From Acidimicrobiales bacterium (GTDB lineage Bacteria > Actinomycetota > Acidimicrobiia > Acidimicrobiales > Palsa-688), in assembly GCA_035551615.1 (NCBI GenBank), contig DASZNC010000059.1, forward strand, positions 13,099 through 77,098: a DNA stretch of 64,000 nucleotides. The letters are read 5' to 3'. Both the position numbers and the translations under genes were made by a program. Positions 2,714 to 34,299 of the stretch are shown in pieces. Numbering within the stretch: position 1 is the stretch's first letter; each line of letters starts with the position of its first letter. The notes under the pieces were generated by a model. It saw nothing but the letters and a program-made list of their open reading frames with translations, did not search any database and was not told the DNA's origin.

Positions 2714-3622
2714 TTACGGGCGATCCGGGCCGGTGCTGGTCCGGGCCGTCTCCGCCGGCGGGCGGGGGGCCGGACCGCTCACTTTTCCCGGCGGGTCCGG
2801 AGCCGCCGCTGCCCAGATCTCCTCGATCACCGCCTCTGCGCTACGGGTGACGCCCTCACGGACGGTGACCCGCCCCGACAGGGCGGTCAGAGCCGCATCG
2901 ATCCCGACGAGATCACGCTCGGCCCGCAGGGCGGCCAGCTCCGAGGCGACAGCCACCACGTCGATGGCCCCCCGCACCGACGAGCCGACCCGCAGGTCGG
3001 GATGGGTCCGGGTGAGCCGCACCGCCCGCACCGCCCGGGCCACCAGACCGGGCGGGCCCGGGGCGACGCGCGAGACGATGGCCGTCTCCTCCGCCTCCTC
3101 CTGGTAGCCGACCGCCACCCGGCAGGTGCGGTCGTAGAGGGCGGGTGTGATCCGGCCCGTCCCGATGGCGTCGAAGGGGTTCATGGCGGCGACCAGCCGG
3201 AAGGTGGGGGCGGCCACTACCTCGCCATAGCGGGGAACCTGCATGCGGCGCTCGGAGAGCACCCCGAGGAGCACGTTGAGCGTCTCTTCCGGGACCCGGT
3301 TCAGTTCCTCGACGTACAGGAGCGAGCCGGTCGTCATGGCCTGCATCAGAGGGCCGGGCATGAAGGTGTCGTTGCGGTAACCGTCGCTCAGCACCCGGGA
3401 CGGATCGTGGTGCCCGATGAGGCGGGCCGGCGACAGCTCGGCGTTGCCCTCGACGAGGAACAGGTCGACCCCGGCGCCGGTGGCCAGCGCCCGCAGGAGG
3501 GTCGTCTTCCCCGTTCCGGGCGGCCCTTCGAGCAGGACACTCCGCCCGGCGGCCAGCGCCGCGGCGACCACTTCGATGTCGCGCTGGCGCCCGACCAGGA
3601 CGTCCCGGGCGGCGGCCACCAT
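2714..3622 (-). CDS. MoxR-like AAA+ ATPase
   Basis: Walker A LLEGPPGTGKT, Walker B LLYVEELNR, VPRYGEVVAAPTFRLVAAMNP and the MoxR C-terminal region. ATG at 3620-3622 (the ORF track extends to a TTG at 3646). Confidence 0.85.
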   Translation of the reverse strand: MVAAARDVLVGRQRDIEVVAAALAAGRSVLLEGPPGTGKTTLLRALATGAGVDLFLVEGNAELSPARLIGHHDPSRVLSDGYRNDTFMPGPLMQAMTTGSLLYVEELNRVPEETLNVLLGVLSERRMQVPRYGEVVAAPTFRLVAAMNPFDAIGTGRITPALYDRTCRVAVGYQEEAEETAIVSRVAPGPPGLVARAVRAVRLTRTHPDLRVGSSVRGAIDVVAVASELAALRAERDLVGIDAALTALSGRVTVREGVTRSAEAVIEEIWAAAAPDPPGKVSGPAPRPPAETARTSTGPDRP

Positions 3623-3642
3623 GGCCGCCGCCGGCAGGACGC

Positions 3643-4764
3643 TCAATCGAAGAGGACGACGCCGCGGATGTTCTTTCCGGCGTGCATGTCCTCGTACCCC
3701 TGCGCAACCTGATCGAGGCGGTAGGTGTTGGTCACCAACTCGTCCAGCTTCAGCTTGCCGTCCCGGTACATCTGCGCCTGGCGCAGAATGTCGGAGCTCG
3801 GGTTGGATGCGCCGAACAGCGAGCCCTGGATCCGCTTCTGGAACAGTGTCAGCTCGCCCAGCGAGATGGGCAGGCCCACCTCCATCAGGTTGCCCAGGCC
3901 CGTGACCACCACCGTGCCCGCCTTACGGGTGGCGGCGAAAGCCTGGGCCACGTGATCTCCTTTGACCACACCTATCGTCACGATGACGGCGTCCGCCCCC
4001 TGACCGTTGGTGAAGCTCTTGGCCAGCTCGTCGGCCTCGGCGATGTCGGCGAAGGCGTGGGTGGCGCCCAGTTGCAGCGCCTTCTCCCGCTTCAGCTCGA
4101 CCGGATCGACGGCGATGACGTTGGTGGCGCCGGCCGCCGCCGCCCCCTGCACGGCATTGATGCCGATGCCACCTATGCCCATCACGATGACGGTGTCGCC
4201 AGGGCGCACGTCGGCCGAGTTGACCGCCGATCCCCAACCGGTGCCCACGCCGCAACCGAGCAGGCACACCTTGTCGAGCGGGAGGTCCTTGTCGACCTTG
4301 ACCGCTGACGCCAGGCTCACCACGGTGTGCTCGGCGAAGGTCGAGATACCGCACATCTGGCCGACCGGCTCACCGTCGACGGTGTGCATGCGGTAGCTGG
4401 TCGGGTCCTCCGGCCGGCCGCCGGACAGGAGACCGGCCCCCAGATCGCAGAGGTTCTGCATGCCGGCCGCACACCACCGGCAGCGACCGCACCCGGGCAG
4501 GAAGGAGAACACGACGTGGTCGCCGACCTCGAAGCCGCCGGTGTTCGGGCCGATCTTCTCGACCACGCCGGCGCCCTCGTGACCACCGCAGAACGGATAA
4601 ACCGCGACCGGGATGTCCCCCGTGGCGATGTGGTCGTCGGAGTGGCACAGCCCGGAGGCGGCCATCCGGATGAGCAACTCGCCCTGGCGGGGCTCGTCCA
4701 GTTCGATGTCTATGGTCTCGTAGCTGCCGGGCGCCGAGGCGATGACAGATCCGCGGGTACGCAT
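3643..4764 (-). CDS. zinc-dependent alcohol dehydrogenase, class III/NDMA-dependent ADH-like (MDR superfamily)
   Basis: GLCHSDDH catalytic zinc motif, CGRCRWC structural zinc Cys cluster and a GIGGIGINAVQGA Rossmann motif. 373 aa, typical length. Confidence 0.85.
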   Translation of the reverse strand: MRTRGSVIASAPGSYETIDIELDEPRQGELLIRMAASGLCHSDDHIATGDIPVAVYPFCGGHEGAGVVEKIGPNTGGFEVGDHVVFSFLPGCGRCRWCAAGMQNLCDLGAGLLSGGRPEDPTSYRMHTVDGEPVGQMCGISTFAEHTVVSLASAVKVDKDLPLDKVCLLGCGVGTGWGSAVNSADVRPGDTVIVMGIGGIGINAVQGAAAAGATNVIAVDPVELKREKALQLGATHAFADIAEADELAKSFTNGQGADAVIVTIGVVKGDHVAQAFAATRKAGTVVVTGLGNLMEVGLPISLGELTLFQKRIQGSLFGASNPSSDILRQAQMYRDGKLKLDELVTNTYRLDQVAQGYEDMHAGKNIRGVVLFD

Positions 4765-8450: not shown

Positions 8451-9328
8451 TCACGGCTGGAGGGTAGCGCCGGCCTCGACCTGCCGGGCGAGAAATGGCA
8501 GGGCGGCCAGTGACCGCATGGTGTCGTTGAGATGGGTGCAGGTGCTCGGTCCGACGAACTCCCGCCGCACCCGGTCCCGCAGATCGGCCGGGTGGGTGCC
8601 GGCCAGGCGGCCGGCGCTGGCCACGGCGCCCGGGCACTCGACCCAGGGCAGGACACCGATCTCTGCGTGAATGGACCGGAAGACGCCGGTCCGGCGGTCG
8701 ATCATCGCTCTCACCAGGTACTCGTGCACCACCCACTCGTCACCCTCGGCGTCGATGTGAGAATCCCGGAAGAAGGCTTCGACCTCGAGGGACTCTTCGG
8801 CGGCGGCGGGCCACACATCGATGCGCCGGAGCCGCCGCATGGAGTGCGGTCCGGCCCCCGCAATCGGGTGCCACCCGTCGGGATCGGCCGACAGCACCGC
8901 GGGTGCGGGCGGGCCGGTCACCTCGGGCGGATAGCCCAGCTCCTCACCCTCCACCAGGATCGTCGCGCCGGTGGCCCAGCCGGCACAGACGTCCGCCTTG
9001 TCCCGGACGTGGAACTGGCCCTTCGGCGGGTGGATGCCCGCCGCCGCAATCGGGAACCCGGCCAACAGCCCGACCGTGCCGAAGTCGTCGAGCAGCTGAT
9101 ACCGGAGGGAGCGGGCCCGATCCTCAGCGTCCCGATCCTCACCGTCCCGATCCTCGTCGTGCTGGTCGTCGGCGCCGGCCAGGTCGGCCAGGCTGCGCCG
9201 GAAGCCGGATGAGACCGACCGGCCGACCAGACCGGCGAAGCGGTCGTCGCCCGGGGTCACGGTCAGCGACCTGAGGACACTGCCCTCTATCAGGCTGAAC
9301 TCGGCCTCGACGGACGCCTCGGCGATCA
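8451..9328 (-). CDS. DUF2889-like conserved hypothetical protein
   Basis: An ATG near 9326-9328 (MIAEASVEAEF...) gives about 290 aa. Conserved Cys motifs ADVCAGWATGA and WVECPGAV. The start coordinate is approximate. Confidence 0.55.
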
Positions 9329-9761
9329 TTCGGGTGGCGCCGGCTGCGGACGTCCACAAATCCCGGCCGGCACTGAGCACGTGCACCGGACCGAGCACCC
9401 CTTCGGGCCGCCGGGCGACCTGGCTGGTCGTACGCCGTACCGATGCCGGGCGCCGATCCGGCGTGCCGGCGTGCGGTTGATGAGGCCCCCGCTTGGGATG
9501 GAGGATGCGCTCGCCCACGACGGCCACCGTAGTGTCACCTGGTGCCAGCTTTCCCCGGCGCCGACCGGTTCCACCTGGCCCGACCCGGTCAGGATGGTCG
9601 CAGTCGCGGGTTCGGCGGGTCGGGCCGGCGGCCCGACCCGGCTCCAACGGGAGACAACACGTAATCGCGAATATCGCCCGGACCGACCGTTTCAGTACCC
9701 CGCCGGCGGGCGCCGGCGGGGCCCGCCGACACAGGGCGTCCGGAGTCCCTACGCTGCCGCA

Positions 9762-10700
9762 ATGGCCCACGCCCGCAAGTTCCGATTCGGTATCCAACTG
9801 GTAACCGCGCCTGACGGCCCGTCATGGGCGGAGACCGCCCGCAAGGTGGAGGACCTCGGGTTCTCGAGCCTGTTCCTCCCCGACCATTTCGGGGACCAAC
9901 TGTCGCCGGTGCCGGCGCTGATGGCGGCCGCTGATGCCACCACCACGCTGCGGGTCGGCGCCCTGGTGTGGGACAACGACTACAAGCATCCGGTCGTGCT
10001 GGCCAAGGAGGCCGCCACCATCGACGTCCTGTCGGGCGGCCGCCTCGAGTTCGGCATCGGCGCCGGCTGGATGAACACCGACTACGAGCAGGCCGGGATC
10101 CCCAAGGAACGGGACGGGGTCCGAATCGCCAAGCTGGCCGAGGCCATCGAGATCTACAGAGGCCTCTGGGGCCCGGACGAGTTCAGTTTCTCAGGCGAGC
10201 ACTACCAGATCGCCGGTCTCAACGGATTCCCCAAACCGGCTCAGCAGCCCCACCCGCCGCTCCTCATCGGTGGCGGCGGCCCGAAGATGCTGGCGTTGGC
10301 CGCCCGCCACGCCGACATCGTCGGGATCAACCCGGCCATCCCCAAGGGGTACATCGACGCGTCGGCCTCCGCCGAGGTCCGTCCCGACCGGCTGGACACC
10401 AAAGTGGGCTGGCTCCGCGACGCCGTCGGGGACCGCCTCGACGATCTCGAGCTGAACATCCTGGTTTTCGCCACTTCCATCGGTCCCGAGGCCGCCGCCC
10501 AGCGGGCCGGCATGGCCCAGATGTTCGGGGTCAGCGAGGACGACTTCGCCGCCTCGCCGTATGTGTGGTTCGGCGACGCCAAGGAAGTAGCCGACTCGTT
10601 GCGGGCGGCGCGCGAACGCTGGGGCACCAGCTACTTCGTGGTCCAGCCCGGCGCCCTCGATCAGGTGGCGCCCGTGATCGCCGAGCTGGCCGGGACGTAA
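9762..10700 (+). CDS. LLM-class F420-dependent oxidoreductase (luciferase-like monooxygenase family)
   Basis: MAHARKFRFGIQL start, LEFGIGAGW and FPKPAQQPHPPLLIGGGGPKMLALAARHADIVGI motifs typical of the TIGR03621-like F420 LLM family. Confidence 0.85.
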   Translation: MAHARKFRFGIQLVTAPDGPSWAETARKVEDLGFSSLFLPDHFGDQLSPVPALMAAADATTTLRVGALVWDNDYKHPVVLAKEAATIDVLSGGRLEFGIGAGWMNTDYEQAGIPKERDGVRIAKLAEAIEIYRGLWGPDEFSFSGEHYQIAGLNGFPKPAQQPHPPLLIGGGGPKMLALAARHADIVGINPAIPKGYIDASASAEVRPDRLDTKVGWLRDAVGDRLDDLELNILVFATSIGPEAAAQRAGMAQMFGVSEDDFAASPYVWFGDAKEVADSLRAARERWGTSYFVVQPGALDQVAPVIAELAGT

Positions 10701-12718: not shown

Positions 12719-13723
12719 CTAGGCGTCGAGATGCATCGGCAGCCCGAATGCCGGGAACAACCGCTCGGGATCCAGGAAGTCGAGGAAGAAGGCCATCTCG
12801 GCGATCTTTCCCCCTGAGATCTCGAGCACCTGGATGGCCCAGGGCGCCCAGCCCCCGGCCGGATCCGGCTTGTACTGACCGAAGGCCGGGCACCCGTTCG
12901 CCGTCGTCGCCAACAGCCGCGATCCCCGGCAGGCACTCGGCCCGGGCAGGACCATCCAGTCGACGATGTTCTGCGAGCCCTCCAGCCACAGCGCGAACGG
13001 CGGCATCGACTGTATGGCGTCGTCGTGTAGCAGCCCCACCAGAGCGTCGATGTCGTAGCGCTCGAAGGCATCCACGTAGCGCTCGAGCAACTCGGTGTGG
13101 TCGGCGTCGAGTGGGCGCGGCCTGGTGTGCGACGGCAGGCTGGCAAGGGTGGAGCGCGCCCTCTGGAGGGCGCTGTTGACCGCCGGCACCGAAGTGGCCA
13201 ATAGCTCGGCCGCGTCCACGACCGGCCAGCGCAGTACCTCGCACAGGACGAGGGCGGCCCGTTGCTTGGCCGGCAGGTGCGGGAGGGCGGTCACGAAGGC
13301 CAGCCGGATGGAGTCCCGCTGTTCGGCCACTTCGGCCGGGTCGCCCAGGTCCGAGATCACCGCGCCGTCGGCGATCGGCGTCACCCACAGGGCCTCCGGG
13401 TGCAGCGGGCCGAGCAGCGACTCGTCGGGCGGCGAGGACGGACCCATCTCCATCGGGCGGGCCCGCCTCTGGACCTGCCGGCCCATGTCGATGCAGACGT
13501 TGGTGGCGATCCGGTACAGCCAGGACCGGACGCTCGACCGGCCCTCGAACGAATCAGCCGCCCTCAGTGCCTTGATCATGGTCTCCTGCACCGCATCTTC
13601 GGCTTCGAAACCGGAACCCAGCATGCGGTAGCAGTAGCCGGTGAGCTCGCGCCGGTAGGGTTCGAGGTCCGCCGACACAAGTGGGGTCGTCACAGCCACG
13701 ACTTCGAGAGTACTCACGGACAA
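12719..13723 (-). CDS. ECF sigma factor with C-terminal SnoaL-like extension (ECF41/SigJ-like)
   Basis: Sigma-70 region 2 (YCYRMLGSGFEAEDAVQET), region 4 (LPHLPAKQRAALVLCEVLRWPVVDAAELLATSVPAVNSALQRAR) and a ~150-aa NTF2/SnoaL-like tail. Confidence 0.85.
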   Translation of the reverse strand: MSVSTLEVVAVTTPLVSADLEPYRRELTGYCYRMLGSGFEAEDAVQETMIKALRAADSFEGRSSVRSWLYRIATNVCIDMGRQVQRRARPMEMGPSSPPDESLLGPLHPEALWVTPIADGAVISDLGDPAEVAEQRDSIRLAFVTALPHLPAKQRAALVLCEVLRWPVVDAAELLATSVPAVNSALQRARSTLASLPSHTRPRPLDADHTELLERYVDAFERYDIDALVGLLHDDAIQSMPPFALWLEGSQNIVDWMVLPGPSACRGSRLLATTANGCPAFGQYKPDPAGGWAPWAIQVLEISGGKIAEMAFFLDFLDPERLFPAFGLPMHLDA

Positions 13724-14055: not shown

Positions 14056-14859
14056 TCAGTGCATGCGGGCGCTCGACCCGAGGCTCAACTCCATGACCGT
14101 CCCGGTCATGATCCCGGGGTCGGTCACCAGGTAGAGAACGGCCCGGCTGACGTCTTCGGACTGGATCATGGCCTGCGGGATCGGGTTGGCCCGGGCGAAG
14201 CGGCGGATCAGCTCATCGGGAACTTCGGCGTCCGGGTCGGGCTGCACCATCGGCGTCTGGACCGTCGTCGGGCACACCACGTTGATGGTGATGCCGTCGC
14301 GGGCGACCTCGAGCGCGACCGACTTGGCCAGGCCGATGACCCCCCACTTGGTGGCGTTGTAGGCGCCCAGCTCGGGGATCCCCATCCGGCCCCCCATCGA
14401 CGCAGTGACCACGATCCTCCCGTACTTCTGTTCCCGCATCACCGGGAGCGCGGCCCGCAAGGTGTGGAAGGCGCCGGTCAGGTTGGTGGCCACGAGGGTG
14501 TCCCAGACCTCGTCGGTCACGTCGGTGATGGGGCCGGTCGACACCACCCCGGCATTGGCCACCACGATGTCGAGCCGCCCGAACTGGTCGACGGTCCGGG
14601 CGACGGCGCCCTCCACGGCGGCGGCGTCGCGGACATCCACCGCTAGGCCTAGCGCTCGGCGGCCGGTCGCTTCGACCTGCTTCACCGACAGCTCCAGATC
14701 ACTGCGCCCGGCGAGGGGATAGGTGAGGACCGGCATCGCCGCCGGGACATCGCAGAGCACCACGTCGGCGCCCTCGGCGGCGAGGGCCAGACCGTGGGAC
14801 CGGCCCTGGCCCCGTGCTCCCCCGGTGATCAGCGCGACCCGTCCGTCCAGTGCTCCCAT
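14056..14859 (-). CDS. SDR-family oxidoreductase, mycofactocin-coupled/carveol-dehydrogenase-like subgroup
   Basis: ITGGARGQGRSHGLALAAEGADV N-terminal signature of mycofactocin-dependent SDRs, NAGV, S-x-YNATK catalytic triad region. Confidence 0.8.
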   Translation of the reverse strand: MGALDGRVALITGGARGQGRSHGLALAAEGADVVLCDVPAAMPVLTYPLAGRSDLELSVKQVEATGRRALGLAVDVRDAAAVEGAVARTVDQFGRLDIVVANAGVVSTGPITDVTDEVWDTLVATNLTGAFHTLRAALPVMREQKYGRIVVTASMGGRMGIPELGAYNATKWGVIGLAKSVALEVARDGITINVVCPTTVQTPMVQPDPDAEVPDELIRRFARANPIPQAMIQSEDVSRAVLYLVTDPGIMTGTVMELSLGSSARMH

Positions 14860-14894: not shown

Positions 14895-14932
14895 GTTACG
14901 ATCCGCCGAGGGGGAGTTACCATCCGAGTAAC
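14895..14932. promoter_or_regulatory. GTTAC direct repeat plus GTTAC-N8-GTAAC inverted repeat in divergent intergenic region
   Basis: acGTTACgatccgccgagggggaGTTACcatccgaGTAACag read between the SDR start (14859, -) and the repeat-protein start (14963, +). Confidence 0.3.
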
Positions 14933-14962
14933 AGCGGTCCATCAGGCAAGGAGCCACGGCGA

Positions 14963-15304
14963 GTGAGTACAGAAGGCAGGGGCGGAGGGTCCGACGGCGA
15001 GGAGGCCGAGCAGCCGCCGGCGTGGCCACTGCCTGACCCGCCCCTCTACTCACCGACCAACCCGGGCCAGGCCTACTCGTCGCCCAACCCGGCGCAGAGC
15101 TACTCGTCCGCCGACCCTGCCCACCGGTACTCGTCGGCCCACCCTGGTCAGAACTACTCGTCGCACCCGGGCCCGACCTATTCGTCCCACCCGGGCGGCC
15201 AGGACTACTCGTCGCATCCGGGTCAGGCGTACTCCTCCAATCCCAACCCGTCGAGCACCTACAGCCCCTCCGGTGGGGCCAGCCCCTCTTCGCCCTCGGA
15301 ATGA
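14963..15304 (+). CDS. Pro/Tyr/Ser-rich nonapeptide-repeat protein (x-H-P-G-Q-x-Y-S-S, ~9 copies), intrinsically disordered
   Basis: GTG start 9 nt after an AAGGAG RBS. Periodic YSS repeats with GC3-biased codons. Its stop overlaps the patatin start (ATGA at 15301-15304). Confidence 0.5.
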   Translation: MSTEGRGGGSDGEEAEQPPAWPLPDPPLYSPTNPGQAYSSPNPAQSYSSADPAHRYSSAHPGQNYSSHPGPTYSSHPGGQDYSSHPGQAYSSNPNPSSTYSPSGGASPSSPSE

Positions 15305-16161
15305 CCACGATGACCAGGGCACTGGTGCTGGCCGGCGGCGGGGTGGCCGGCATCGCCTGGGAGACCGGCGTGCTGAGGGGCATCGAAGAAGCCGATCCGC
15401 AGCTGGCCGCCTCGCTGCTCGCCGCCGACGTGATCATCGGCACCTCGGCCGGCGCGGCGGTGGCCGCCCAGGTCACGAGTGGCCGGTCGCTCGCCGATCT
15501 CTACGACGATCAGGTCAACGGGCCGTCGCCCGAGATCGATGTGCAGATGGAGATGGACGAACTGATCGGCCGGTTCATCCAGGCCGTCCAGGGCGCTGAT
15601 TCACGGACCGATGTGCTGAGGAGAATCGGCCGGATGGCCGCCGCCACCGAGACGGTGACCGAGGCCGAACGCCGGGCGGTGATCGAACGACGCCTGCCCA
15701 GTCACGATTGGCCCGACGGCGATGTGCGCATCGTCGCCGTCGAGATCGACGCCGGTGAACCGGTCGTGTTCGACCGCACGACCGGCGTGGCGCTGGTGGA
15801 CGCGGTCGCCGCCAGCTGCGCGGTGCCGGGTATCTGGCCGCCGGTGACCATCGGCGACCGGCGCTACATGGATGGTGGCGTGCGATCGACGTCGAACGTC
15901 GACCTGGCCGCTGGGTGCGACCGGATCGTCGTGTTGTCGCCGGCGGCCGCCGACCAGCCCGGGCTGGCCGGCCGGACGCTGGCCGAGGAGGTCGCGTCCT
16001 TTGACCAGATACCGGTCACCATCATCGATGCATCACCGGAGGCGGTCGCCGCCTTCGGGACCAATCCGCTGTCGGCCACGACCCGGAGGCCGGCCGCCAC
16101 CGCCGGGCGCCGTCAGGGGCTCGAGTGGGCTGGAAAGCTGGGCCCGACCTGGGCCGGTTAG
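15301..16161 (+). CDS. patatin-like phospholipase
   Basis: GGGVAG oxyanion motif, GTSAG nucleophile-Ser motif, DGG catalytic Asp motif (YMDGGV). 286 aa. Confidence 0.85.
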   Translation: MTTMTRALVLAGGGVAGIAWETGVLRGIEEADPQLAASLLAADVIIGTSAGAAVAAQVTSGRSLADLYDDQVNGPSPEIDVQMEMDELIGRFIQAVQGADSRTDVLRRIGRMAAATETVTEAERRAVIERRLPSHDWPDGDVRIVAVEIDAGEPVVFDRTTGVALVDAVAASCAVPGIWPPVTIGDRRYMDGGVRSTSNVDLAAGCDRIVVLSPAAADQPGLAGRTLAEEVASFDQIPVTIIDASPEAVAAFGTNPLSATTRRPAATAGRRQGLEWAGKLGPTWAG

Positions 16162-16171
16162 GGCGGGCGGC

Positions 16172-17128
16172 TCAGGAAGGCGTCGTGAAGATCGTGCCCA
16201 GGCCGACGCCGGTGTGGTCGTAGGCGCCCTCCGGGTTGGCCCGCACGCTGGCATCGAGCTGATGGGCGTCGTCGCCGACCAGAATCCGCCACTGGCCGGC
16301 CCGGACCCCCTCCAGGATGATGCGAGCGGCGCCCGCAGCATCGAGCGGTGCGGTGGTCCGGAAGCCCTCCTCGAGCATCTTGACCATCTCCCGCAGTTGG
16401 TCCGACGACAGGTCGTCGGCCGGGAAGCCCCGCTTCTGGACCTGCTCCCGGGTCGACGCCAGGTCCTCCTCGGTCAGGGCGTCGGGTTCGGGCCGACCGA
16501 AGTAGCGGCGGGAGTTGGCGACGATGTCGGTCCCGATGTGACCGGGCATGACGACCGAGACGCCGACGTGCGGGGCGTTGACCCGGAGATCCTCGATCAT
16601 GGCCTCGGAGAAGCCCTTCACCGCGAATTTGGCCGCGCTGTAGGCGGTGTGGGGGATGCCCGGGCCCAGTGAGGCCCAGAACCCGTTGACGCTGCTGGTA
16701 TTGACCAGCCGGGCTGACTCGGCGGCGATCAGGCGGGGCAGGAAGGCGCGGGTGCAGTAGTACACGCCCCACCAGTCGACCCCGAAGGTCCGTTCCCAGT
16801 CCTCCCGGGAGTCGGCGATGAAGCTGCCGCCGCCGCCGATGCCGGCGTTGTTGAACAGGTACTCGATCACGTCGCCGTGGGCGGCCACGACCTCGTCACG
16901 GAAATCCGTCACCTGGGCTTCGTTGGACACATCGCAGATATGGGTGGAGATCTTCGTCCCGGCCGGGGCGCCGGCTTCGGCCCGGGCCAGGGTCTCGGCC
17001 AGACCGACCGGGCTGACGTCGCACGTGGCCACGTGGCATCCCTCGGCCGTCAGCTGGATGACCAGCTCGCGACCCATACCCGAGCCACCGCCGGTGACCA
17101 CCGCCCGCTTGCCTGAGAACGTGTCCAC
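16172..17128 (-). CDS. SDR-family oxidoreductase
   Basis: GKRAVVTGGGSGMG cofactor motif, NNAG, Y-x3-K (YSAAK). Start taken as GTG at about 17128; the alternative ATG at 17179 would leave only an 18-nt gap to the upstream gene. Confidence 0.75.
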   Translation of the reverse strand: MDTFSGKRAVVTGGGSGMGRELVIQLTAEGCHVATCDVSPVGLAETLARAEAGAPAGTKISTHICDVSNEAQVTDFRDEVVAAHGDVIEYLFNNAGIGGGGSFIADSREDWERTFGVDWWGVYYCTRAFLPRLIAAESARLVNTSSVNGFWASLGPGIPHTAYSAAKFAVKGFSEAMIEDLRVNAPHVGVSVVMPGHIGTDIVANSRRYFGRPEPDALTEEDLASTREQVQKRGFPADDLSSDQLREMVKMLEEGFRTTAPLDAAGAARIILEGVRAGQWRILVGDDAHQLDASVRANPEGAYDHTGVGLGTIFTTPS

Positions 17129-17197: not shown

Positions 17198-18493
17198 TCA
17201 GGCGCCGATTCGGCTGGTGGCCGAACCCTCGTAGGGGGCGTTCCCGTAGTTGAACGCCCCGCCGTCGGCGGCGACCAACCAGTAGCCGCCATAGCTGCTG
17301 TCGGCGGCCAACCCGACCACCGGCGCGGCCAGCGTCGACCCACCCGCCGAGCCCAGGAACGGGGCGTGGAAACCGAAGACCCCGCCGTCGGCCGCCACCA
17401 GCCAGTAGCCACCGGTCGCCCGGTCGGCGGTGATCCCGACGACGGCGGCGCTGAGCGGAGCCGACCCGGCCGACCCATAGAAGGGGGCACCGCCGTAGGC
17501 GAACACCCCGCCGTCGGCGGCGGCCAGCCAGTAACCGTGCCCGCCCGGCGCGGCGGCGATGCCGACCACCGGTGCGGCGAGCGGATGGCCGGCAGCCGAA
17601 CCCTCGAAGCGGGCGTCCCCATAGGTGAACACCCCGCCGTCGGCGGCGACCAGGTAGTAGCCGCGCCCATCGGACGAGGCGGCAATACCGACCAGCGGTT
17701 GGGCCAGCCTGCGGCCGCCGGTCGACCCGTAGAACCGGGCCCCGTCGTAGCTGTACACCCCGCCGTCGGCGGTCACCATCCAGAACCCGCCGTTCGGATC
17801 GGAGGCCACCCCGACGAACGGGACATCGGATCCGTCACCCGCCTCGGTGACGGTGTTCGGCTCGGCGTAGACGACCCCGCTGGCCGTCGCTATCCGGAAG
17901 CCGCCCTGGGCGCCGGCCGGCGAACCCGACGACGGCCGGGCCGCCGGGCGGGCGGAAGAATCGCCGGTGACGCCGACGGCCGGGTCGGGCCGCAGCGCTT
18001 TGGCCGGCTGCACGACCGAATAGGTGCCCGGGCCCTGAGAGCAGGGCCGGCTGATACCGAGGGGGTACACCGCGCCTTGGCCGTCGCCGCTGATCCGGAG
18101 GAAAACCGACTGGGCGATGTCGGTGCAGTAGGCGGACCAGGCGACGGCGATGACCGGCGGGGCCATCTCATGGCCGGCGAACAGAAGGTCGACCGTCGCG
18201 TCCCCGCCGTCGGTTGCGATCCCGGCCGGGACGGCGCCGGCCGCATCGGTGATCTCGTCCGACAGCACCGGGGCGGTCGTGCAGCTCTGGCCCGGCCGGG
18301 CCGGTATCAACTGGATGGTCAGGACCTGGGTCCCGGCCGCGCCCTCGGTCGACTCCTGGCCGAAGGTGAAGTCGCACGGAGCCGGATGCGCCGGCAGCCG
18401 GGCTGCGGCCGGCGCGCCGCCGGCGATCGACCCGACGGCGATCAACAGTCCGGCCGCCGCGACCTTGGCTGCTGTCAGATGGAGTGACCTCAT
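17198..18493 (-). CDS. secreted protein: signal peptide + Cys-containing N-domain + 5-6 tandem ~38-aa propeller-like repeats (GYWLVAADGGVFxYGxAxFxGS)
   Basis: N-terminal signal peptide (AAGLLIAVGSIAGGAPAAA). The repeats are read directly; it is a paralog of 20146..21528. Confidence 0.75.
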   Translation of the reverse strand: MRSLHLTAAKVAAAGLLIAVGSIAGGAPAAARLPAHPAPCDFTFGQESTEGAAGTQVLTIQLIPARPGQSCTTAPVLSDEITDAAGAVPAGIATDGGDATVDLLFAGHEMAPPVIAVAWSAYCTDIAQSVFLRISGDGQGAVYPLGISRPCSQGPGTYSVVQPAKALRPDPAVGVTGDSSARPAARPSSGSPAGAQGGFRIATASGVVYAEPNTVTEAGDGSDVPFVGVASDPNGGFWMVTADGGVYSYDGARFYGSTGGRRLAQPLVGIAASSDGRGYYLVAADGGVFTYGDARFEGSAAGHPLAAPVVGIAAAPGGHGYWLAAADGGVFAYGGAPFYGSAGSAPLSAAVVGITADRATGGYWLVAADGGVFGFHAPFLGSAGGSTLAAPVVGLAADSSYGGYWLVAADGGAFNYGNAPYEGSATSRIGA

Positions 18494-20145: not shown

Positions 20146-21528
20146 ATGACCCTACGACCCCGCACCCCCACCGCCGCCGCCGCCGCCGTCGCCGTACTGG
20201 CCGCCGCCGGTGCCGCCGGCCTGGGCACCCACCCGGCCGTCGCCCAGGAGGTCCACAGCACGACCACCCCGGCGCACGTGGCGGCCAGCACCTCGCAGGC
20301 CTACAGCCTGCTCACGCGCGACGGCCGCCTGGTGGGCTTCGGTGGCGCCTTCTCCGGGACGGTAGCTGCGCCCAGTTCCCCGGTGGTGGGCGTGGCGTCC
20401 ACCCCCGATGGCCACGGCGCTTACGCAGCCGAGGCCGACGGGGCGGTGATCGCCCTGGGCGACGCCGTCTACCGCGGCTCCATGGCCGGCACCCGCCTGG
20501 CCCAACCGATCGTCGGCATCGCCATCGACCCGGCCACGGGTGGGTACTGGCTGGTGGCGTCCGACGGCGGCATCTTCTCCTTCGGCGACGCCCCCTTCTA
20601 CGGCTCCACCGGCGGCATCCACCTGTCCGAACCGGTGGTCGGCATCTCGGCCATGCCCGACGGGGGCGGCTACCGCATGGTCGCCACCGACGGCGGCGTC
20701 TTCTCCTTCGGCGACGCCCGCTTCTACGGTTCGACCGGGGGCGTGCACCTCAGCCAGCCGGTGGTCGGCATGGCCACCACGTCGTCCGGCAACGGCTACT
20801 GGCTGGTCGCATCCGATGGTGGCCTGTTCAACTACGGCGACGCCCATTTCTACGGTTCCACCGGCAACGTCCACCTGGTGAAGCCGGTCATCGCCATCAG
20901 CCCGACGACCAACGGGCACGGTTACTGGATGGTTGCGTCCGACGGTGGCATCTTCACCTTCGGCAACGCCGCCTACTACGGCTCCGGTTCCGGCCTCGGC
21001 ACGGAGGTGGTCGGGATGGCGACCGGCGCCACCGGCAACTACGACGATCCCCTCCGGGCCGTCGCCGGCCTCACGCCGGAGCGGGTCGACGAGGGCGTGG
21101 ACTATGCCGGCTCCGGGCCCATATATGCGCTGGGCGACGGGGTGGTCACGTCGACGGCCGGCTCGTGGCCGGACGGCAACTACATCTCCTACCGGCTGAC
21201 CGACGGCCCGGCCGCCGGGAAGATGGTCTACGTCGCCGAGAATGTCACCCCGACGGTCACCGTCGGCCAGGTGGTCAACGTCAACACGGTGGTCGGGATC
21301 CTCCATGACTCGTACCCGGACATGGAGATCGGTTGGTCCGCCGACTCCTACGGCGACACCATGGCGGCTGTCTCCGGCCAGTGGACGTCGGCCAACGACA
21401 GCGATTCCGACCCGACGGCCTACGGTGCCAACTTCGATCAGCTGTTGATGTCGCTCGGCGCGCCGTCGGGGATCATGGAGCACCCGACGCCGCACGGCAC
21501 GCTGGCCGCCGGCTGGCCCACCTGGTAG
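20146..21528 (+). CDS. secreted protein: signal peptide + ~6 tandem 38-40-aa propeller-like repeats + unknown ~170-aa C-terminal domain
   Basis: MTLRPRTPTAAAAAVAVLAAAGAAGLGTHPAVAQE signal peptide. Repeats GYWLVASDGGIFSFGDAPFYGSTGGIHLSEPVVGIS x6. RBS-like GGAAAG before the ATG. Confidence 0.8.
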   Translation: MTLRPRTPTAAAAAVAVLAAAGAAGLGTHPAVAQEVHSTTTPAHVAASTSQAYSLLTRDGRLVGFGGAFSGTVAAPSSPVVGVASTPDGHGAYAAEADGAVIALGDAVYRGSMAGTRLAQPIVGIAIDPATGGYWLVASDGGIFSFGDAPFYGSTGGIHLSEPVVGISAMPDGGGYRMVATDGGVFSFGDARFYGSTGGVHLSQPVVGMATTSSGNGYWLVASDGGLFNYGDAHFYGSTGNVHLVKPVIAISPTTNGHGYWMVASDGGIFTFGNAAYYGSGSGLGTEVVGMATGATGNYDDPLRAVAGLTPERVDEGVDYAGSGPIYALGDGVVTSTAGSWPDGNYISYRLTDGPAAGKMVYVAENVTPTVTVGQVVNVNTVVGILHDSYPDMEIGWSADSYGDTMAAVSGQWTSANDSDSDPTAYGANFDQLLMSLGAPSGIMEHPTPHGTLAAGWPTW

Positions 21529-29688: not shown

Positions 29689-31170
29689 TTGTCTTCCCCC
29701 TCGTTCGCAGAGCTCGGCGTTGCCGCCGATGCCGTCCGCTATCTCCGCGCCCGCGGCATCGATAGTGCTTTCCCCATCCAGGCCCTGGCCATCCCGCCGG
29801 CCCTGGCCGGTCGCGACATATGCGGCCGGGCCCCGACCGGATCGGGGAAGACCATCGCCTTCGGCCTGCCGGTCGCCGCTCGCGTCCCCCGGGGTGGGCC
29901 CCGCCGGCCCACCGCCCTGATCCTGGCTCCCACCCGGGAGCTGGCCGCCCAGATCGAGAAGGAGATGGCCCTGCTGCTGGGTCGCGACGGCCATCGCCGA
30001 GTGGCCGCCTTCTACGGCGGAGTCGGATTCGGCCCCCAGCTGAAGGCTCTGAGTCGCGGCATCGATGTCGCTGTGGCCTGCCCGGGGCGGCTGAAGGACC
30101 TGATCGACCGAGGCGACATCTCCCTCGGCGACGTGCAGATCGTCGTCCTCGACGAGGCCGACCGGATGGCGGACATGGGCTTCCTGCCCGAGGTGCGCCG
30201 TCTGTTGAACCAGGTGCGTGACGACCGCCAGACCATGCTCTTCTCGGCCACGCTGGACGGCGACGTCGACACCCTGATCCGCAATTACCAGCGCGACCCG
30301 GTCCACGTGGCCGTCGAGGCGGAGGCATCGGCCGGGGCGACGACCACGCACAACTGGGTCGACGTGCCCCGCGAGGAGCGGGTGGCGTTGACCGCCGGCT
30401 ACATCGCCGACCACGGCTCCACCGTCGTCTTCTGCCGGACCAAGCACGGCGCCGACCGGCTGGCCCGACAGCTGTCGAACGCCGGCGTGTCGGCCGTGCC
30501 GATCCACGGCGACCGGTCCCAGGGCCAACGGGAGAAGGCGCTGGCCGCCTTCGCCGCCGGCCGGGCCCAGGCCCTGGTCGCCACGGACGTGGCCGCCCGG
30601 GGTATCCACGTGGACGACGTCCGCTGCGTGGTCCACTTCGATCTGCCGGCGACCGACAAGGACTACATGCACCGGTCGGGACGGACCGGTCGGGCCGGTG
30701 CCGACGGCACGGTGATCGCCTACGTCACGCCCAACACGCTGGACCTGGCCCGTGATCTGCGGCGCGCTCTGGTCGGTGTGGTCCCGGCCAAGAGCTCGGC
30801 CAGCCGCGACGTGGCCCGCCCGGCCGGCACCCCGGCGCCGACCACCCCGGCGACGCCCGCGGGCTCCGACCCGGCCCCGCCGCGTACCAATGGATCGGAC
30901 CCGTCGGGGCCGATTCCGATCGCTCGCGGCCAGGGTCGCCACCCGGGCCGGCGCGGCCAGGGTGGCCCCAAGCCGGCTGGCCAGAACGGCTCCCAGTCGC
31001 GAGGCCAGGGCGGCCAGAACGGCAGCCCGGCCCGGCCCAAGAACGGGGCCAAGGCCGGCGTCGGCCGCACCGGGGAACGCTGGACCGGCTCGAAGCCGGC
31101 GGCCAAGGGTGGAACCGCATCCGGGCCCGGCCCCCGCCGCGCCGCCCGTCCCCGCCGCCGGCCGGCCTGA
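29689..31170 (+). CDS. DEAD-box ATP-dependent RNA helicase with Arg/Gly/Pro-rich C-terminal tail
   Basis: Q motif F...PIQ, Walker A APTGSGKT, DEAD (LDEADRM), SAT, HGD, HRSGRTGRAG motifs. The C-terminus is low-complexity RG/PA-rich. Confidence 0.9.
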   Translation: MSSPSFAELGVAADAVRYLRARGIDSAFPIQALAIPPALAGRDICGRAPTGSGKTIAFGLPVAARVPRGGPRRPTALILAPTRELAAQIEKEMALLLGRDGHRRVAAFYGGVGFGPQLKALSRGIDVAVACPGRLKDLIDRGDISLGDVQIVVLDEADRMADMGFLPEVRRLLNQVRDDRQTMLFSATLDGDVDTLIRNYQRDPVHVAVEAEASAGATTTHNWVDVPREERVALTAGYIADHGSTVVFCRTKHGADRLARQLSNAGVSAVPIHGDRSQGQREKALAAFAAGRAQALVATDVAARGIHVDDVRCVVHFDLPATDKDYMHRSGRTGRAGADGTVIAYVTPNTLDLARDLRRALVGVVPAKSSASRDVARPAGTPAPTTPATPAGSDPAPPRTNGSDPSGPIPIARGQGRHPGRRGQGGPKPAGQNGSQSRGQGGQNGSPARPKNGAKAGVGRTGERWTGSKPAAKGGTASGPGPRRAARPRRRPA

Positions 31171-31231
31171 ACCGCCCCACTGCCCCCTATCGCCGACCCG
31201 CGGCTCCTTTGACCTGATCCGGCGCGGGGCC

Positions 31232-31261
31232 TTGACATGTGACTATTTAGTCACGTATTCT
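31232..31261 (+). promoter_or_regulatory. sigma-A-like promoter (TTGACA-18-TATTCT) with GTGACTA-tt-TAGTCAC palindrome in the spacer; predicted leaderless transcript
   Basis: Consensus -35, a 7-bp perfect inverted repeat at 31239-31254 and the -10 ending 6 nt before the GTG start of the ArsR-like gene. Confidence 0.45.
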
Positions 31262-31267
31262 GATCCA

Positions 31268-32020
31268 GTGGACGAGGTGTTCAGGGCGCTGGCCGATCCG
31301 ACCCGGAGGGGGCTGCTCGACGAGCTGTTCCGCCGGGACGGCCAGACCCTCACTGAGCTCGAGGAGCGGGTGCAGATGACCCGCTTCGGGGTGATGAAGC
31401 ACCTGAAGCAACTGGAGGAGGCCGGCTTGGTCGTCTCCCGCCGGCGGGGGCGGGAGAAACTGCATTTCCTCAACCCGGTGCCCATCCGGCTGGTCCACGA
31501 CAGATGGGTGAGCAAGTACGCCGAGCCCTGGGTCGCCGGGCTGGCCGAGATCAAGGAGAGGTTGGAACGAACCATGGAGAAGATCTACGAGATCTACATT
31601 CGGACCACGCCCGAGTTGCTGTGGGAGGCCATCACCGACCCGGAGATACGGGCCAAGTACCACTTCGGCACGGCCGCCTTCACCGACTGGAAGCCGGGGT
31701 CGGCCATCGAGGTCAAGAACCCGAAGGCCGGGTCGCTGCTCGGTGAGGGCGAGGTGCTCGAGGTCGATCCCCCCCATCGCCTGGTGCACACCATGACCGC
31801 CCTGTGGGGAGATGACGTGAGAGCCGAGGGGGCGTCGCGGGTCACATGGGAGATCGTCCCGGTGGGCGACTCTTGCCAGCTGACGGTCACCCACGACCAG
31901 ATGCGGGAGGGGGCCAACAACCAGCTGTACGGCGGCTGGCCGATGATCCTCTCCGGCCTGAAGACGTGGCTGGAGACGGGCGAGCTGCTGACCACGCCGG
32001 GATCGTTGATGTACACCTGA
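31268..32020 (+). CDS. ArsR/SmtB-family HTH regulator fused to SRPBCC/AHSA1-like domain
   Basis: ADPTRRGLLDELF...LEERVQMTRFGVMKHLKQLEEAGLV ArsR HTH followed by an ~150-aa activator-of-Hsp90-ATPase-like domain. Confidence 0.75.
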   Translation: MDEVFRALADPTRRGLLDELFRRDGQTLTELEERVQMTRFGVMKHLKQLEEAGLVVSRRRGREKLHFLNPVPIRLVHDRWVSKYAEPWVAGLAEIKERLERTMEKIYEIYIRTTPELLWEAITDPEIRAKYHFGTAAFTDWKPGSAIEVKNPKAGSLLGEGEVLEVDPPHRLVHTMTALWGDDVRAEGASRVTWEIVPVGDSCQLTVTHDQMREGANNQLYGGWPMILSGLKTWLETGELLTTPGSLMYT

Positions 32021-32124
32021 ACGGGCCGACGGTCAGGAGGTGCTCGAGGCCCTCGACGTCCGATCGCCACCGGCGCGCACATGATGAGGACCTGAGACCG
32101 GCCCACGTCATAACCTCCCCGCCC

Positions 32125-34299
32125 ATGACCCTGCCCCTCACCCTCGAGCAGAAGGCTGCCCTCCTGTCCGGCCAGGACTTCTGGTCGACACATCCGGTCG
32201 AGGAGATGGGCGTGCCGTCGGTCGTCATGACCGACGGTCCTCATGGGATCCGCCGCCAGGCCGGCTCGTTCGACCACATCGGACTGAACGCCAGCCTGCC
32301 GGCCACCTGCTTCCCGCCGGCGGTGGCGGTCGGTTGCAGTTGGGACCGGGAAGTGGCCCGCCGGGTGGGCGGTGCGGTGGGCGCCGAGGCCCGCGCCCTG
32401 GGCGTGCACATCGCGCTGGGCCCGGGGATCAACATCAAGCGGTCGCCGCTGTGTGGGCGGAACTTCGAGTACTACTCGGAGGATCCGTTGCTGGCCGGGG
32501 AGCTGGCCGCCGCCCACGTATCCGGCCAGCAGGAGGTGGGGGTCGGGGCCTCGCTCAAGCACTTCGCCGCCAACAACCAGGAAACCGACCGCATGCAGGT
32601 GAGCGCCGACATCGACGAGCGCACCCTCAGGGAGATCTATCTGACCGCCTTCGAGCGGGTGGTCACGACGGCGCGGCCGGCGACGGTGATGTGCTCTTAC
32701 AACCGGATCAACGGGGTGTACTCGTCCGAGAACCGCTGGCTGCTCACCGATCTGTTGCGGGGCGAGTGGGGTTTCTCCGGGCTGGTCGTGTCGGACTGGG
32801 GGGCGGTCCACGACCCGGTGGCCGCGGTGGCCGCCGGTCTCGACCTGGAGATGCCGGGCACGGGCGGGGCGAGCGCCCAGATGATCGTCGATGCCGTCCG
32901 GGCCGGACGCCTCGACGAGGCCGAGGTCGATGCCGCCGCCGAGCGGGTGCTGGCGCTGGCCGGGCTGGTGCAGGAACCGTCCCCCGGGTTCGATGTCGAG
33001 GGCCATCACCAACTGGCCCGCGATCTGGCGGCCGACTGCGCCGTCCTGCTCAAGAACGACCACGACGTGCTGCCGATATCCGGGGTCGGCGTGATCGCCG
33101 TGATCGGCGAGCTGGCCGACCACCTGCGTTTCCAGGGGGGCGGCAGCTCCCACATCAACGCCACCCGGGTAGACACACCCATAGACGCCATCCGGGCCGC
33201 CGCCGCCGGCCGCGGCATCGAGGTGCGCCACCACGGGGGCTACGAGATCGACCGGGTCCGGTCGGCGGCGACCGGCGCCGGCGTGGCCGTCGTGTTCGCC
33301 GGGCTGCGCGACCGTGAGGAGTCGGAGGGCTTCGACCGGACGTCGCTCTCGATCGCCGACGAGCAGATCGCCGCCATCCGGGACGCCGCCGATGCCGCCG
33401 GGCGCACGGTCGTCGTGCTGGCCAACGGCAGCGTGGTCTCGCTGGAGGGCTGGCACGACGACGCCGACGCCATCCTGGAGGGGTTCCTCCTGGGCCAGGC
33501 CGGCGGCGGCGCCATCGCCGACCTGTTGTTCGGCGATGCCAATCCGTCGGGGCGCCTGGCCGAAACCATCCCGCTCCGTCTCGAGGACACCCCGGCGTTC
33601 GTCAACTTCCCCGGCGAAGCGGGTCACGTTCGCTACGGCGAGGGGGTCATGGTCGGCTACCGCTGGTACGAGACGGTGGGTCGCGAGGTGCGCTACCCGT
33701 TCGGTTACGGGCTCAGCTACACGACTTTCGCCACGTCGGCGCTGACCGTCGAGGTCATCGGCGACGACACCGCCCGGGCCCGGGTGACGGTGACCAACAC
33801 CGGCCGGCGGGCGGGCAAGCACGTGGTGCAGCTGTACGTGGCCACCTCGTGCGGCCCGGTGCGACGGCCGCAGCGCGAGTTGCGGGCCTTCACCAAAGTG
33901 GCGCTCGAACCGGGTCAGTCCGAGGAGGTGACGTTCGAGCTGGACCGCCGGGCGTTCGCCTATTACGACCTGCCGCACCGCGAGTGGGTGGTCGGGCCCG
34001 GCGACTACACCATCCAGATCGCCGACGACGCCTCGACGGTGCGGGCCGAGACGACGATCCGCCTGGCCGGCCAGATCGTCATACCGATCCTCACCATCCA
34101 CTCCAGCCTGGGCGAGTGGCTCGGCCACCCGACCGCCGGGCCGCTGCTGAGCAAGGCGGTCGGTAGCTTCCTCGGCGACGACACCGAATCGGAGATGTTC
34201 CGCATGGCCGCCCAGATCCCGATCGCCACCCTGCTCAACATGTTCGCCGGCGCCCTGCCGACCGACCTGGTCGACGAGATCAGGAGGGTCGCGCAGTAG
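32125..34299 (+). CDS. glycoside hydrolase family 3 beta-glucosidase
   Basis: GH3 N-domain (HGIRRQ, KHFAANNQE), nucleophile region GFSGLVVSDWGA, C-terminal sandwich and fibronectin-like domain. About 724 aa from ATG 32125. Confidence 0.9.
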   Translation: MTLPLTLEQKAALLSGQDFWSTHPVEEMGVPSVVMTDGPHGIRRQAGSFDHIGLNASLPATCFPPAVAVGCSWDREVARRVGGAVGAEARALGVHIALGPGINIKRSPLCGRNFEYYSEDPLLAGELAAAHVSGQQEVGVGASLKHFAANNQETDRMQVSADIDERTLREIYLTAFERVVTTARPATVMCSYNRINGVYSSENRWLLTDLLRGEWGFSGLVVSDWGAVHDPVAAVAAGLDLEMPGTGGASAQMIVDAVRAGRLDEAEVDAAAERVLALAGLVQEPSPGFDVEGHHQLARDLAADCAVLLKNDHDVLPISGVGVIAVIGELADHLRFQGGGSSHINATRVDTPIDAIRAAAAGRGIEVRHHGGYEIDRVRSAATGAGVAVVFAGLRDREESEGFDRTSLSIADEQIAAIRDAADAAGRTVVVLANGSVVSLEGWHDDADAILEGFLLGQAGGGAIADLLFGDANPSGRLAETIPLRLEDTPAFVNFPGEAGHVRYGEGVMVGYRWYETVGREVRYPFGYGLSYTTFATSALTVEVIGDDTARARVTVTNTGRRAGKHVVQLYVATSCGPVRRPQRELRAFTKVALEPGQSEEVTFELDRRAFAYYDLPHREWVVGPGDYTIQIADDASTVRAETTIRLAGQIVIPILTIHSSLGEWLGHPTAGPLLSKAVGSFLGDDTESEMFRMAAQIPIATLLNMFAGALPTDLVDEIRRVAQ

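Follow-up and report, generated by a model that had tools for sequence, protein, structure and literature searches.

A patatin-like phospholipase gene in the 64,000-nucleotide stretch of Acidimicrobiales DNA analysed here (hereafter the window) is immediately preceded by a 113-codon open reading frame (ORF) encoding a series of short tandem peptide units. The locus thus raises the question of whether this frame, referred to below as the repeat ORF, is a gene in its own right, and in what way it is connected to the lipase gene that begins where it ends. The contig of the window corresponds to Ga0376674_0000459, of 77 kb, in JGI metagenome 3300036800. The answer favoured here, to which we give a probability of roughly one half, is that the repeat ORF represents an upstream cistron specific to its lineage, produced by in-frame repeat expansion, that feeds ribosomes to a patatin start codon lacking a Shine-Dalgarno (SD) sequence.

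An upstream frame of in-frame tandem units

The repeat ORF occupies positions 14963-15304 of the forward strand, opening with GTG and closing with a TGA at 15302-15304. The strong ribosome-binding site reported in a preliminary description of this DNA is recognisable by direct reading as AAGGAG at 14948-14953, on the same strand and 9 nt 5′ of GTG 14963, which is itself the sole ATG, GTG or TTG of its frame 3′ of a divergent SDR gene (14056-14859, reverse strand). A longer version of the frame, starting at GTG 14723 (193 aa), was rejected; it overlaps the opposite-strand SDR gene, and its GC contents by codon position are 0.60/0.79/0.75.

Within the repeat ORF, positions 15026-15268 of the forward strand hold nine units ending in Y-S-[S/P], with the consensus (H/N)PGQxYSS, in agreement with the approximately nine imperfect nonapeptides first described. 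Units 1-5 read PLPDPPLYSP, TNPGQAYSS, PNPAQSYSS, ADPAHRYSS and AHPGQNYSS, and units 6-9 read HPGPTYSS, HPGGQDYSS, HPGQAYSS and NPNPSSTYSP. Seven of the nine are good matches to (H/N/D)P(G/A)(Q/H/P)xYSS, the first and last being degenerate. The units span 8-10 residues, or 24-30 nt, and their lengths in order (30/27/27/27/27/24/27/24/30 nt) are all multiples of 3, such that every unit remains in frame. The Tyr and the first Ser are invariant across the units and vary only in synonymous codons (TAC/TAT for the former; TCG/TCA/TCC/AGC for the latter). Tandem Repeats Finder resolves the array with periods of 27 and 24 nt (scores 82-98), a second repeat finder also recovers it, and there is no other copy of the unit in the 64-kb window.

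The composition of the product is strongly skewed, with 26 Ser, 21 Pro, 13 Gly, 9 Tyr, 9 Ala, 2 Leu, 2 Arg, 1 Trp, 1 Val and no Lys; Ser thus makes up 23%, Pro 19%, Gly 12% and Tyr 8% of its residues, and aliphatics are nearly nil. Single-sequence modelling with AlphaFold2 yields a mean pLDDT of 52.8 and a pTM of 0.14, with no secondary structure. In keeping with the lack of a hydrophobic core noted earlier, the polypeptide is predicted to be intrinsically disordered. None of the Pfam, NCBIfam or PADLOC profiles matches the repeat ORF.

Coding character of the repeat ORF

Open frames are common in the window, the DNA of which is 70% GC, and two minus-strand frames over the repeat stretch are likewise open. 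The minus-strand ORFs across the repeat were ruled out by codon statistics. The repeat ORF has GC contents by codon position of 0.59/0.68/0.84 and, relative to a reference of 34 long genes of the window, a codon adaptation index of 0.61, a value that lies within the span of real genes (0.55-0.77) and that none of 138 spurious-looking ORFs attains (maximum 0.53). Measured against the off-frames, the codon log-likelihood ratio reaches +20 over the repeats, and over the 20 non-repeat codons of the N-terminus it is +7.5. The same frame is also called by JGI's gene caller. Overall, the repeat ORF is coding-like, and we infer that it is translated.

The downstream gene is a patatin

The gene that follows, at 15301-16161 of the forward strand, encodes a protein of 286 aa from ATG 15301 or of 283 aa from ATG 15310. 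The patatin motifs attributed to it at the outset are intact, comprising GGGVAG, GTSAG (containing S49) and DGG (containing D191), and the catalytic dyad formed by S49 and D191 is invariant in a 31-sequence alignment. Pfam family PF01734 is matched with a score of 94.9 bits (cut-off 27.7; E = 9.1e-27) over model positions 1-190 of 191. By these features the downstream gene is a bona fide member of the patatin family, with predicted lipid acyl-hydrolase activity. The clade to which it belongs is very large, with 7,993 of the 8,000 candidates scored reaching E ≤ 1e-20; the closest non-self patatin among them is 66-67% identical. The only solved relative found by sequence is PlpD (E = 9e-7).

Patatin enzymes can act as toxins, defence effectors and lipid remodelers, as the preliminary description noted; for the present gene, a toxin or defence type is not upheld. 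The patatin scores 30.8 bits against CBASS_lipase (cut-off 200) and 26.6 bits against the anti-phage lipase profile DS2_1_antiphage (cut-off 400), and its matches to PADLOC effectors are weak only. Its neighbours, namely two SDR genes and genes for an ECF sigma factor, a GNAT protein and an HxlR protein, are metabolic and regulatory in kind and include no cyclase, secretion, signalling or defence partner. The protein is an ordinary actinobacterial patatin that lies far under the CBASS and anti-phage cut-offs.

The junction and its predicted coupling

The two frames meet very closely. The overlap between the stop of the repeat ORF and the patatin ATG that had been described is real insofar as an ATGA sequence is present (ATG 15301, TGA 15302-15304). 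The likelier patatin start is nevertheless ATG 15310, because its homologues open with M/V-x-x-ALVLAGGG and the gene model of NCBI has 283 aa. This second ATG is located 5 nt past the stop of the repeat ORF, and the junction is tight with either start codon. No recognisable SD sequence precedes either patatin ATG, the upstream sequence ...ctcggaatgaccacgATG being devoid of a GGAGG-like site; the nearest patatin relatives carry GGGAGG, GGAAGG or GGGGAGG 6-9 nt 5′ of their starts. There is no consensus promoter and no terminator between the repeat ORF and the patatin gene, and no Rfam RNA in the leader.

In the mechanism proposed for this locus, in-frame expansion of a 27-bp unit would have built the repeat ORF. 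Ribosomes would load at the AAGGAG-GTG signal and translate all 113 codons as far as TGA 15302-15304, where they would terminate before reinitiating at ATG 15301 or ATG 15310 in the absence of an SD sequence at the patatin start, so that lipase synthesis would depend on translation of the repeat ORF. As regards the translational coupling suggested in the preliminary description, the geometry of a tight stop and start together with an SD-less patatin start fits and renders coupling plausible, and it is from this geometry that we infer reinitiation linking the two cistrons and the dependence of the second on translation of the first.

Distribution of the repeat ORF and of the locus

The repeat ORF is an orphan. 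A word-indexed homology search with it returned no match, and an exhaustive phmmer search of 1.84 billion representative proteins returned no relatives, its two matches being repeat-to-repeat only. One of them, an abalone zinc-finger protein with GGPGQDLSS units, was judged convergent. The other, a metagenomic protein kinase (P0122; E = 1.2e-6), comes from an AT-rich-looking source, and convergence is likely here as well. In this kinase, encoded on an ENA contig of 267,607 nt, some 13 near-perfect DGPGQTYSS nonapeptides at residues ~70-190 precede the Pkinase domain (E = 3.6e-8); these may constitute a Tyr/Ser-rich substrate or docking region. A degenerate DNA pattern for YSSHPG..YSS found two chance matches in metagenomes, both on AT-rich contigs, and a metagenome scan with the patatin protein confirmed nothing; each of these is a weak negative, since the source contig was also missed.

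Comparison with other patatin loci leads to the same picture. The set consisted of 86 other loci (48-67% identity), including the contigs of the four nearest relatives, and the genome loci compared, 80 in number, derive from Mycobacterium, Micromonospora, metagenome-assembled genomes of Acidimicrobiales, and others. A repeat or low-complexity ORF ending near the patatin start occurs in 0 of the 86. Conservation of the small ORF upstream of patatin orthologues, proposed earlier as a check on its significance, is thus not seen in this set, within which the closest patatin available is only 66-67% identical. The genes 5′ of patatin vary from locus to locus (an ABM monooxygenase, a divergent malate synthase, and various unidentified ORFs), and the patatins of the clade are stand-alone genes in varied neighbourhoods. 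Tandem repeats within 500 nt upstream of patatin are found in 6 of 87 other loci scanned. Full-text searching of the literature brought up no report of a patatin preceded by an ORF of this kind, which is a limited negative.

The nearest genome relative provides a view of the locus without its central portion. In the window, the repeat ORF is separated by a 103-nt spacer from the divergent SDR gene at 14056-14859, which is named mycofactocin-coupled by the sources, and the patatin gene converges on a second SDR gene (16172-17128, reverse strand) with a gap of 10 nt. Logan contig L091 encodes homologues of both flanking SDR genes, each 87% identical. At 2811-4622 of that contig the two reside on one strand, 54 nt apart, with the homologue of the second SDR gene directly upstream and neither patatin nor repeat ORF between them. 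The alignment between the window and L091 continues for about 40 nt beyond the start of the SDR gene, on its upstream side. A block of ~1.27 kb, comprising the SD sequence, the repeat ORF and the patatin gene and extending approximately from 14905 to 16165, is therefore present in the window and absent from L091. No terminal direct or inverted repeats and no mobile-element ends were found at the edges of the block. More distant SDR relatives (73-74% identity) occur in differing contexts, and the block may have been either inserted in the window or deleted in L091. In the window the block, on the opposite strand, splits what is probably an SDR-SDR operon.

Patatins of this family do not have the repeat peptide as a conserved partner, and any link between the two is either cis-acting, at the level of translation, or very recent. 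The peptide itself is an orphan predicted to be disordered, and any role of its own is hypothetical.

Alternative explanations

Several observations weigh against the upstream-cistron reading. The repeat ORF is known from one contig only and its coding status is judged from sequence; moreover, the exact 113-aa protein, with V or M as its first residue, is not in a collection of 15 billion proteins. The log-likelihood ratio of the repeats does not represent 81 independent codons, because a tandem repeat multiplies the codon signature of one unit, and the sole independent codon support is the +7.5 of the 20-codon non-repeat N-terminus. Differences between units are spread evenly over the codon positions (28/26/31). 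To these is added a change of frame ahead of the junction: third-position GC, followed in sliding windows, is highest in the frame of the repeat ORF up to ~15255-15275, 30-45 nt before the ATG, and in that of patatin from there on. The junction segment (15268-15300, forward strand) reads SGGASPSSPSE in the ORF frame and LRWGQPLFALG in the patatin frame (CTC CGG TGG GGC CAG CCC CTC TTC GCC CTC GGA, the 33 nt before ATG 15301), and codon usage fits the latter, with log-likelihood ratios over these 11 codons of -4.3 and +4.5, respectively; equally frame-shifted 11-codon windows make up 0.24% of 8,829 windows from 20 real genes. Upstream of 15301 the patatin frame is devoid of start codons; the simplest way for these junction codons to be used would therefore be the gain of one base in a G4/C4 run, and the vicinity contains runs of C4 at 15265-15268 (on the last base of which the junction segment begins), G4 at 15275-15278 and C4 at 15283-15286. 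The junction codons point towards a history of fusion or frameshift, and it may be that the repeats are a present or recent N-terminal tail of the lipase, separated from it by a 1-nt indel.

According to the main rival explanation, there is one gene, of ~399 aa from GTG 14963, and the repeats are a disordered N-terminal extension of the patatin. A base would then have been lost near 15250-15300, either through an assembly error at a G4/C4 run or through a very recent real frameshift, and a single added base does fuse both frames. The lack of an SD sequence at the patatin start agrees with this explanation, as does the N-terminal position of the nonapeptides relative to the enzyme domain in P0122, the best repeat-only match. 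A closer parallel is offered by P0011, a patatin of 60% identity encoded on contig L088, in which three in-frame (P/S)EAPTS(H/P) heptads, specified by a 21-nt tandem repeat, are joined directly to ALVLAGGG; this extension must be translated, because there is no start codon at the usual position. Other N-terminally extended patatin homologues retain, where the protein usually begins or close by, a Met or a Val that could stand for a GTG start, and most of their extensions consequently look like over-extended gene calls. However, the two frames differ as assembled, and indel errors look rare in the window, the rest of which is packed with long intact ORFs. In addition, Met 15310 coincides exactly, in the alignment, with the first residue of the homologues, the tail of the repeat ORF in its own frame (S/G/A/P) matches the composition of the peptide elsewhere, the stop falls exactly on the ATG, as is typical of coupled pairs, and eleven codons are a small sample. 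The single-gene explanation is on balance unlikely, though it is the most serious competitor of the upstream cistron. A side observation concerns L088, where the 21-nt unit and its three heptads lie at 410-500 of the forward strand and where, at 140-330 of the reverse strand, a 15-nt unit gives rise to an N-terminal (GSGPG)n tract in the gene divergent from the patatin; such lineages seem prone to acquiring low-complexity repeats at protein N-termini.

The remaining explanations differ in how much they ask of the peptide. At one extreme, the array would be a 27-bp minisatellite in the 5′ leader of patatin that is open by chance, its peptide being unmade or irrelevant. The abundance of long open frames, including the two on the minus strand, is in keeping with this, as are the tandem repeats upstream of patatin elsewhere, the orphan status of the repeat ORF and the even spread of unit differences over codon positions. 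Nonetheless, a strong SD sequence stands at ideal spacing from the only possible start, codon usage is genome-like even in the non-repeat N-terminus, every change of unit length is in frame, and the other open frames have no codon signature; furthermore, because the patatin has no SD sequence of its own, something must deliver ribosomes to it. The chance that the array is a non-functional minisatellite appears small. At the other extreme, the Tyr/Ser-rich peptide would be a dedicated partner that binds the patatin so as to inhibit, activate, tether or localise it, or would serve as a phospho-substrate. The repeat ORF and the patatin gene are tightly linked and are present or absent as one block relative to L091, and the even Tyr spacing, together with His-Pro-Gly in five units, could conceivably support multivalent or metal-dependent binding. 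Set against this are the absence of such an ORF from all 86 other patatin loci, the lack of ORF homologues, the stand-alone occurrence of clade patatins in varied neighbourhoods, a patatin of neither toxin nor defence type, and a peptide for which no folded domain is predicted. The roles of inhibitor, immunity protein, tether or phospho-substrate that were initially entertained are accordingly left unsupported, and a dedicated partner seems improbable. Still more speculative, and the least probable of all, is the proposal that the lipase is under the control of a newborn low-complexity protein, made stoichiometrically with it, that offers Tyr "stickers" and His-Pro-Gly turns. Such control could, for instance, consist in tethering to membranes or lipid bodies, of a multivalent or condensate-like nature, or in a switch operated by Tyr/Ser phosphorylation or by metal binding; if true, lipase and regulator would form a previously undescribed kind of pair.

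If the upstream-cistron reading is true, the locus would represent a natural young orphan gene, formed by in-frame minisatellite expansion and already wired to the expression of an enzyme, and would lend itself to the study of how genes are born and how reinitiation operates in high-GC Actinomycetota. If instead the repeats belong to a fused protein, then the locus and P0011 together would indicate that disordered repeat tails are acquired time and again at the N-terminus within the patatin clade. Neither outcome alters what is known of patatin toxins or defence systems, and the evidence comes from one contig.

Other features of the window

The ECF-type sigma factor gene lies two genes from the block, at 12719-13723 of the reverse strand, and its product matches SnoaL_2 in addition to Sigma70_r2 and Sigma70_r4_2. 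Beyond the second SDR gene, the reverse strand carries at 17198-18493 an ORF of 431 aa whose codon usage is gene-like and whose product seems to have a signal sequence at its N-terminus. It contains at least six internal repeats of ~40 aa (GGYWLVAADGGVFxYGxAxFxGS) and has no significant Pfam family, the best being DUF5818 at E = 0.0027, below the cut-off; it may encode an uncharacterised propeller-like repeat protein. A gene-like ORF of 460 aa at 20146-21528 on the forward strand is likewise without a significant Pfam match, with Peptidase_M23 sub-threshold at E = 0.031. Elsewhere, long gene-like ORFs of the program-made ORF list overlap one another by 175-419 nt, as is the case for 8451-9797 (reverse) with 9381-10700 (forward) and for 29689-31170, 30752-32020 and 31846-34299 (all forward); these overlaps are probably due to over-extended starts.

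Comparison with known systems

The arrangement proposed here has counterparts among coupled upstream cistrons. In Escherichia coli, a short upstream ORF controls iraD by termination-reinitiation coupling (PMC5574718), and reinitiation has been described in dicistronic constructs whose downstream cistron lacks an SD sequence (PMC9955659, PMC2268962). The present locus resembles these in that only the upstream ORF is provided with an SD sequence, and in that the stop of this ORF either overlaps the downstream start or comes to within 5 nt of it. It differs in that the repeat ORF is long for such an element, at 113 codons, and tandemly repetitive, and in that coupling is here a prediction from sequence. 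Considered as an enzyme, the patatin is a full member of the Actinomycetota patatins (PF01734; labelled "NTE family protein" by the sources), at ~283 aa. Its relatives, in contrast, stand alone with their own start signals and have no upstream repeat ORF.

Patatin toxin and effector systems with partner genes include ExoU with its chaperone SpcU and the CapV lipases of CBASS. As in these systems, a patatin enzyme is encoded beside a small gene, but their partners are folded and conserved, whereas the repeat ORF is disordered and non-conserved and the patatin scores fall below the cut-offs. The present locus belongs to neither the ExoU/SpcU nor the CBASS kind.

Short repeats with regularly spaced Tyr or His residues are familiar from several proteins, including PQGGYQQYN in Sup35, [G/S]Y[G/S] in FUS, the PHGGGWGQ octarepeats of PrP, and YSPTSPS in the C-terminal domain (CTD) of RNA polymerase II; elastomeric repeats with P-G turns are also called to mind by the composition of the repeat ORF. 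Common to the Sup35, FUS, PrP and CTD repeats and the present ones are short units rich in P, G, Q and S, one aromatic residue per 8-10 positions, few charged or aliphatic residues, and predicted disorder; there is no sequence homology. With regard to a possible prion- or FUS-like character, the product has a Tyr every 8-10 residues, and S, P, G, Q and N amount to 63% of it, with Pro high and Q/N low for a prion-like domain. The loose resemblance to the CTD heptad remarked upon at first is compositional only, since the period is 8-10 rather than 7 and the motif is HPGQxYSS rather than YSPTSPS; YSP appears only in the first and last units, and YSPS only in the last.

The nearest analogues of the array itself are the two proteins discussed above. 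P0122 has nearly the same nonapeptide (GPGQxYSS) beside an enzyme, but its repeats are fused to a kinase, its source appears AT-rich, and only the repeats match. In P0011, by comparison, the unit is 21 nt long and occurs in three copies that are part of the patatin frame itself and not of a separate ORF, yet the protein belongs to the same patatin clade, at 60% identity, and its gene, like the present locus, carries at its 5′ end a tandem repeat that stays in frame.

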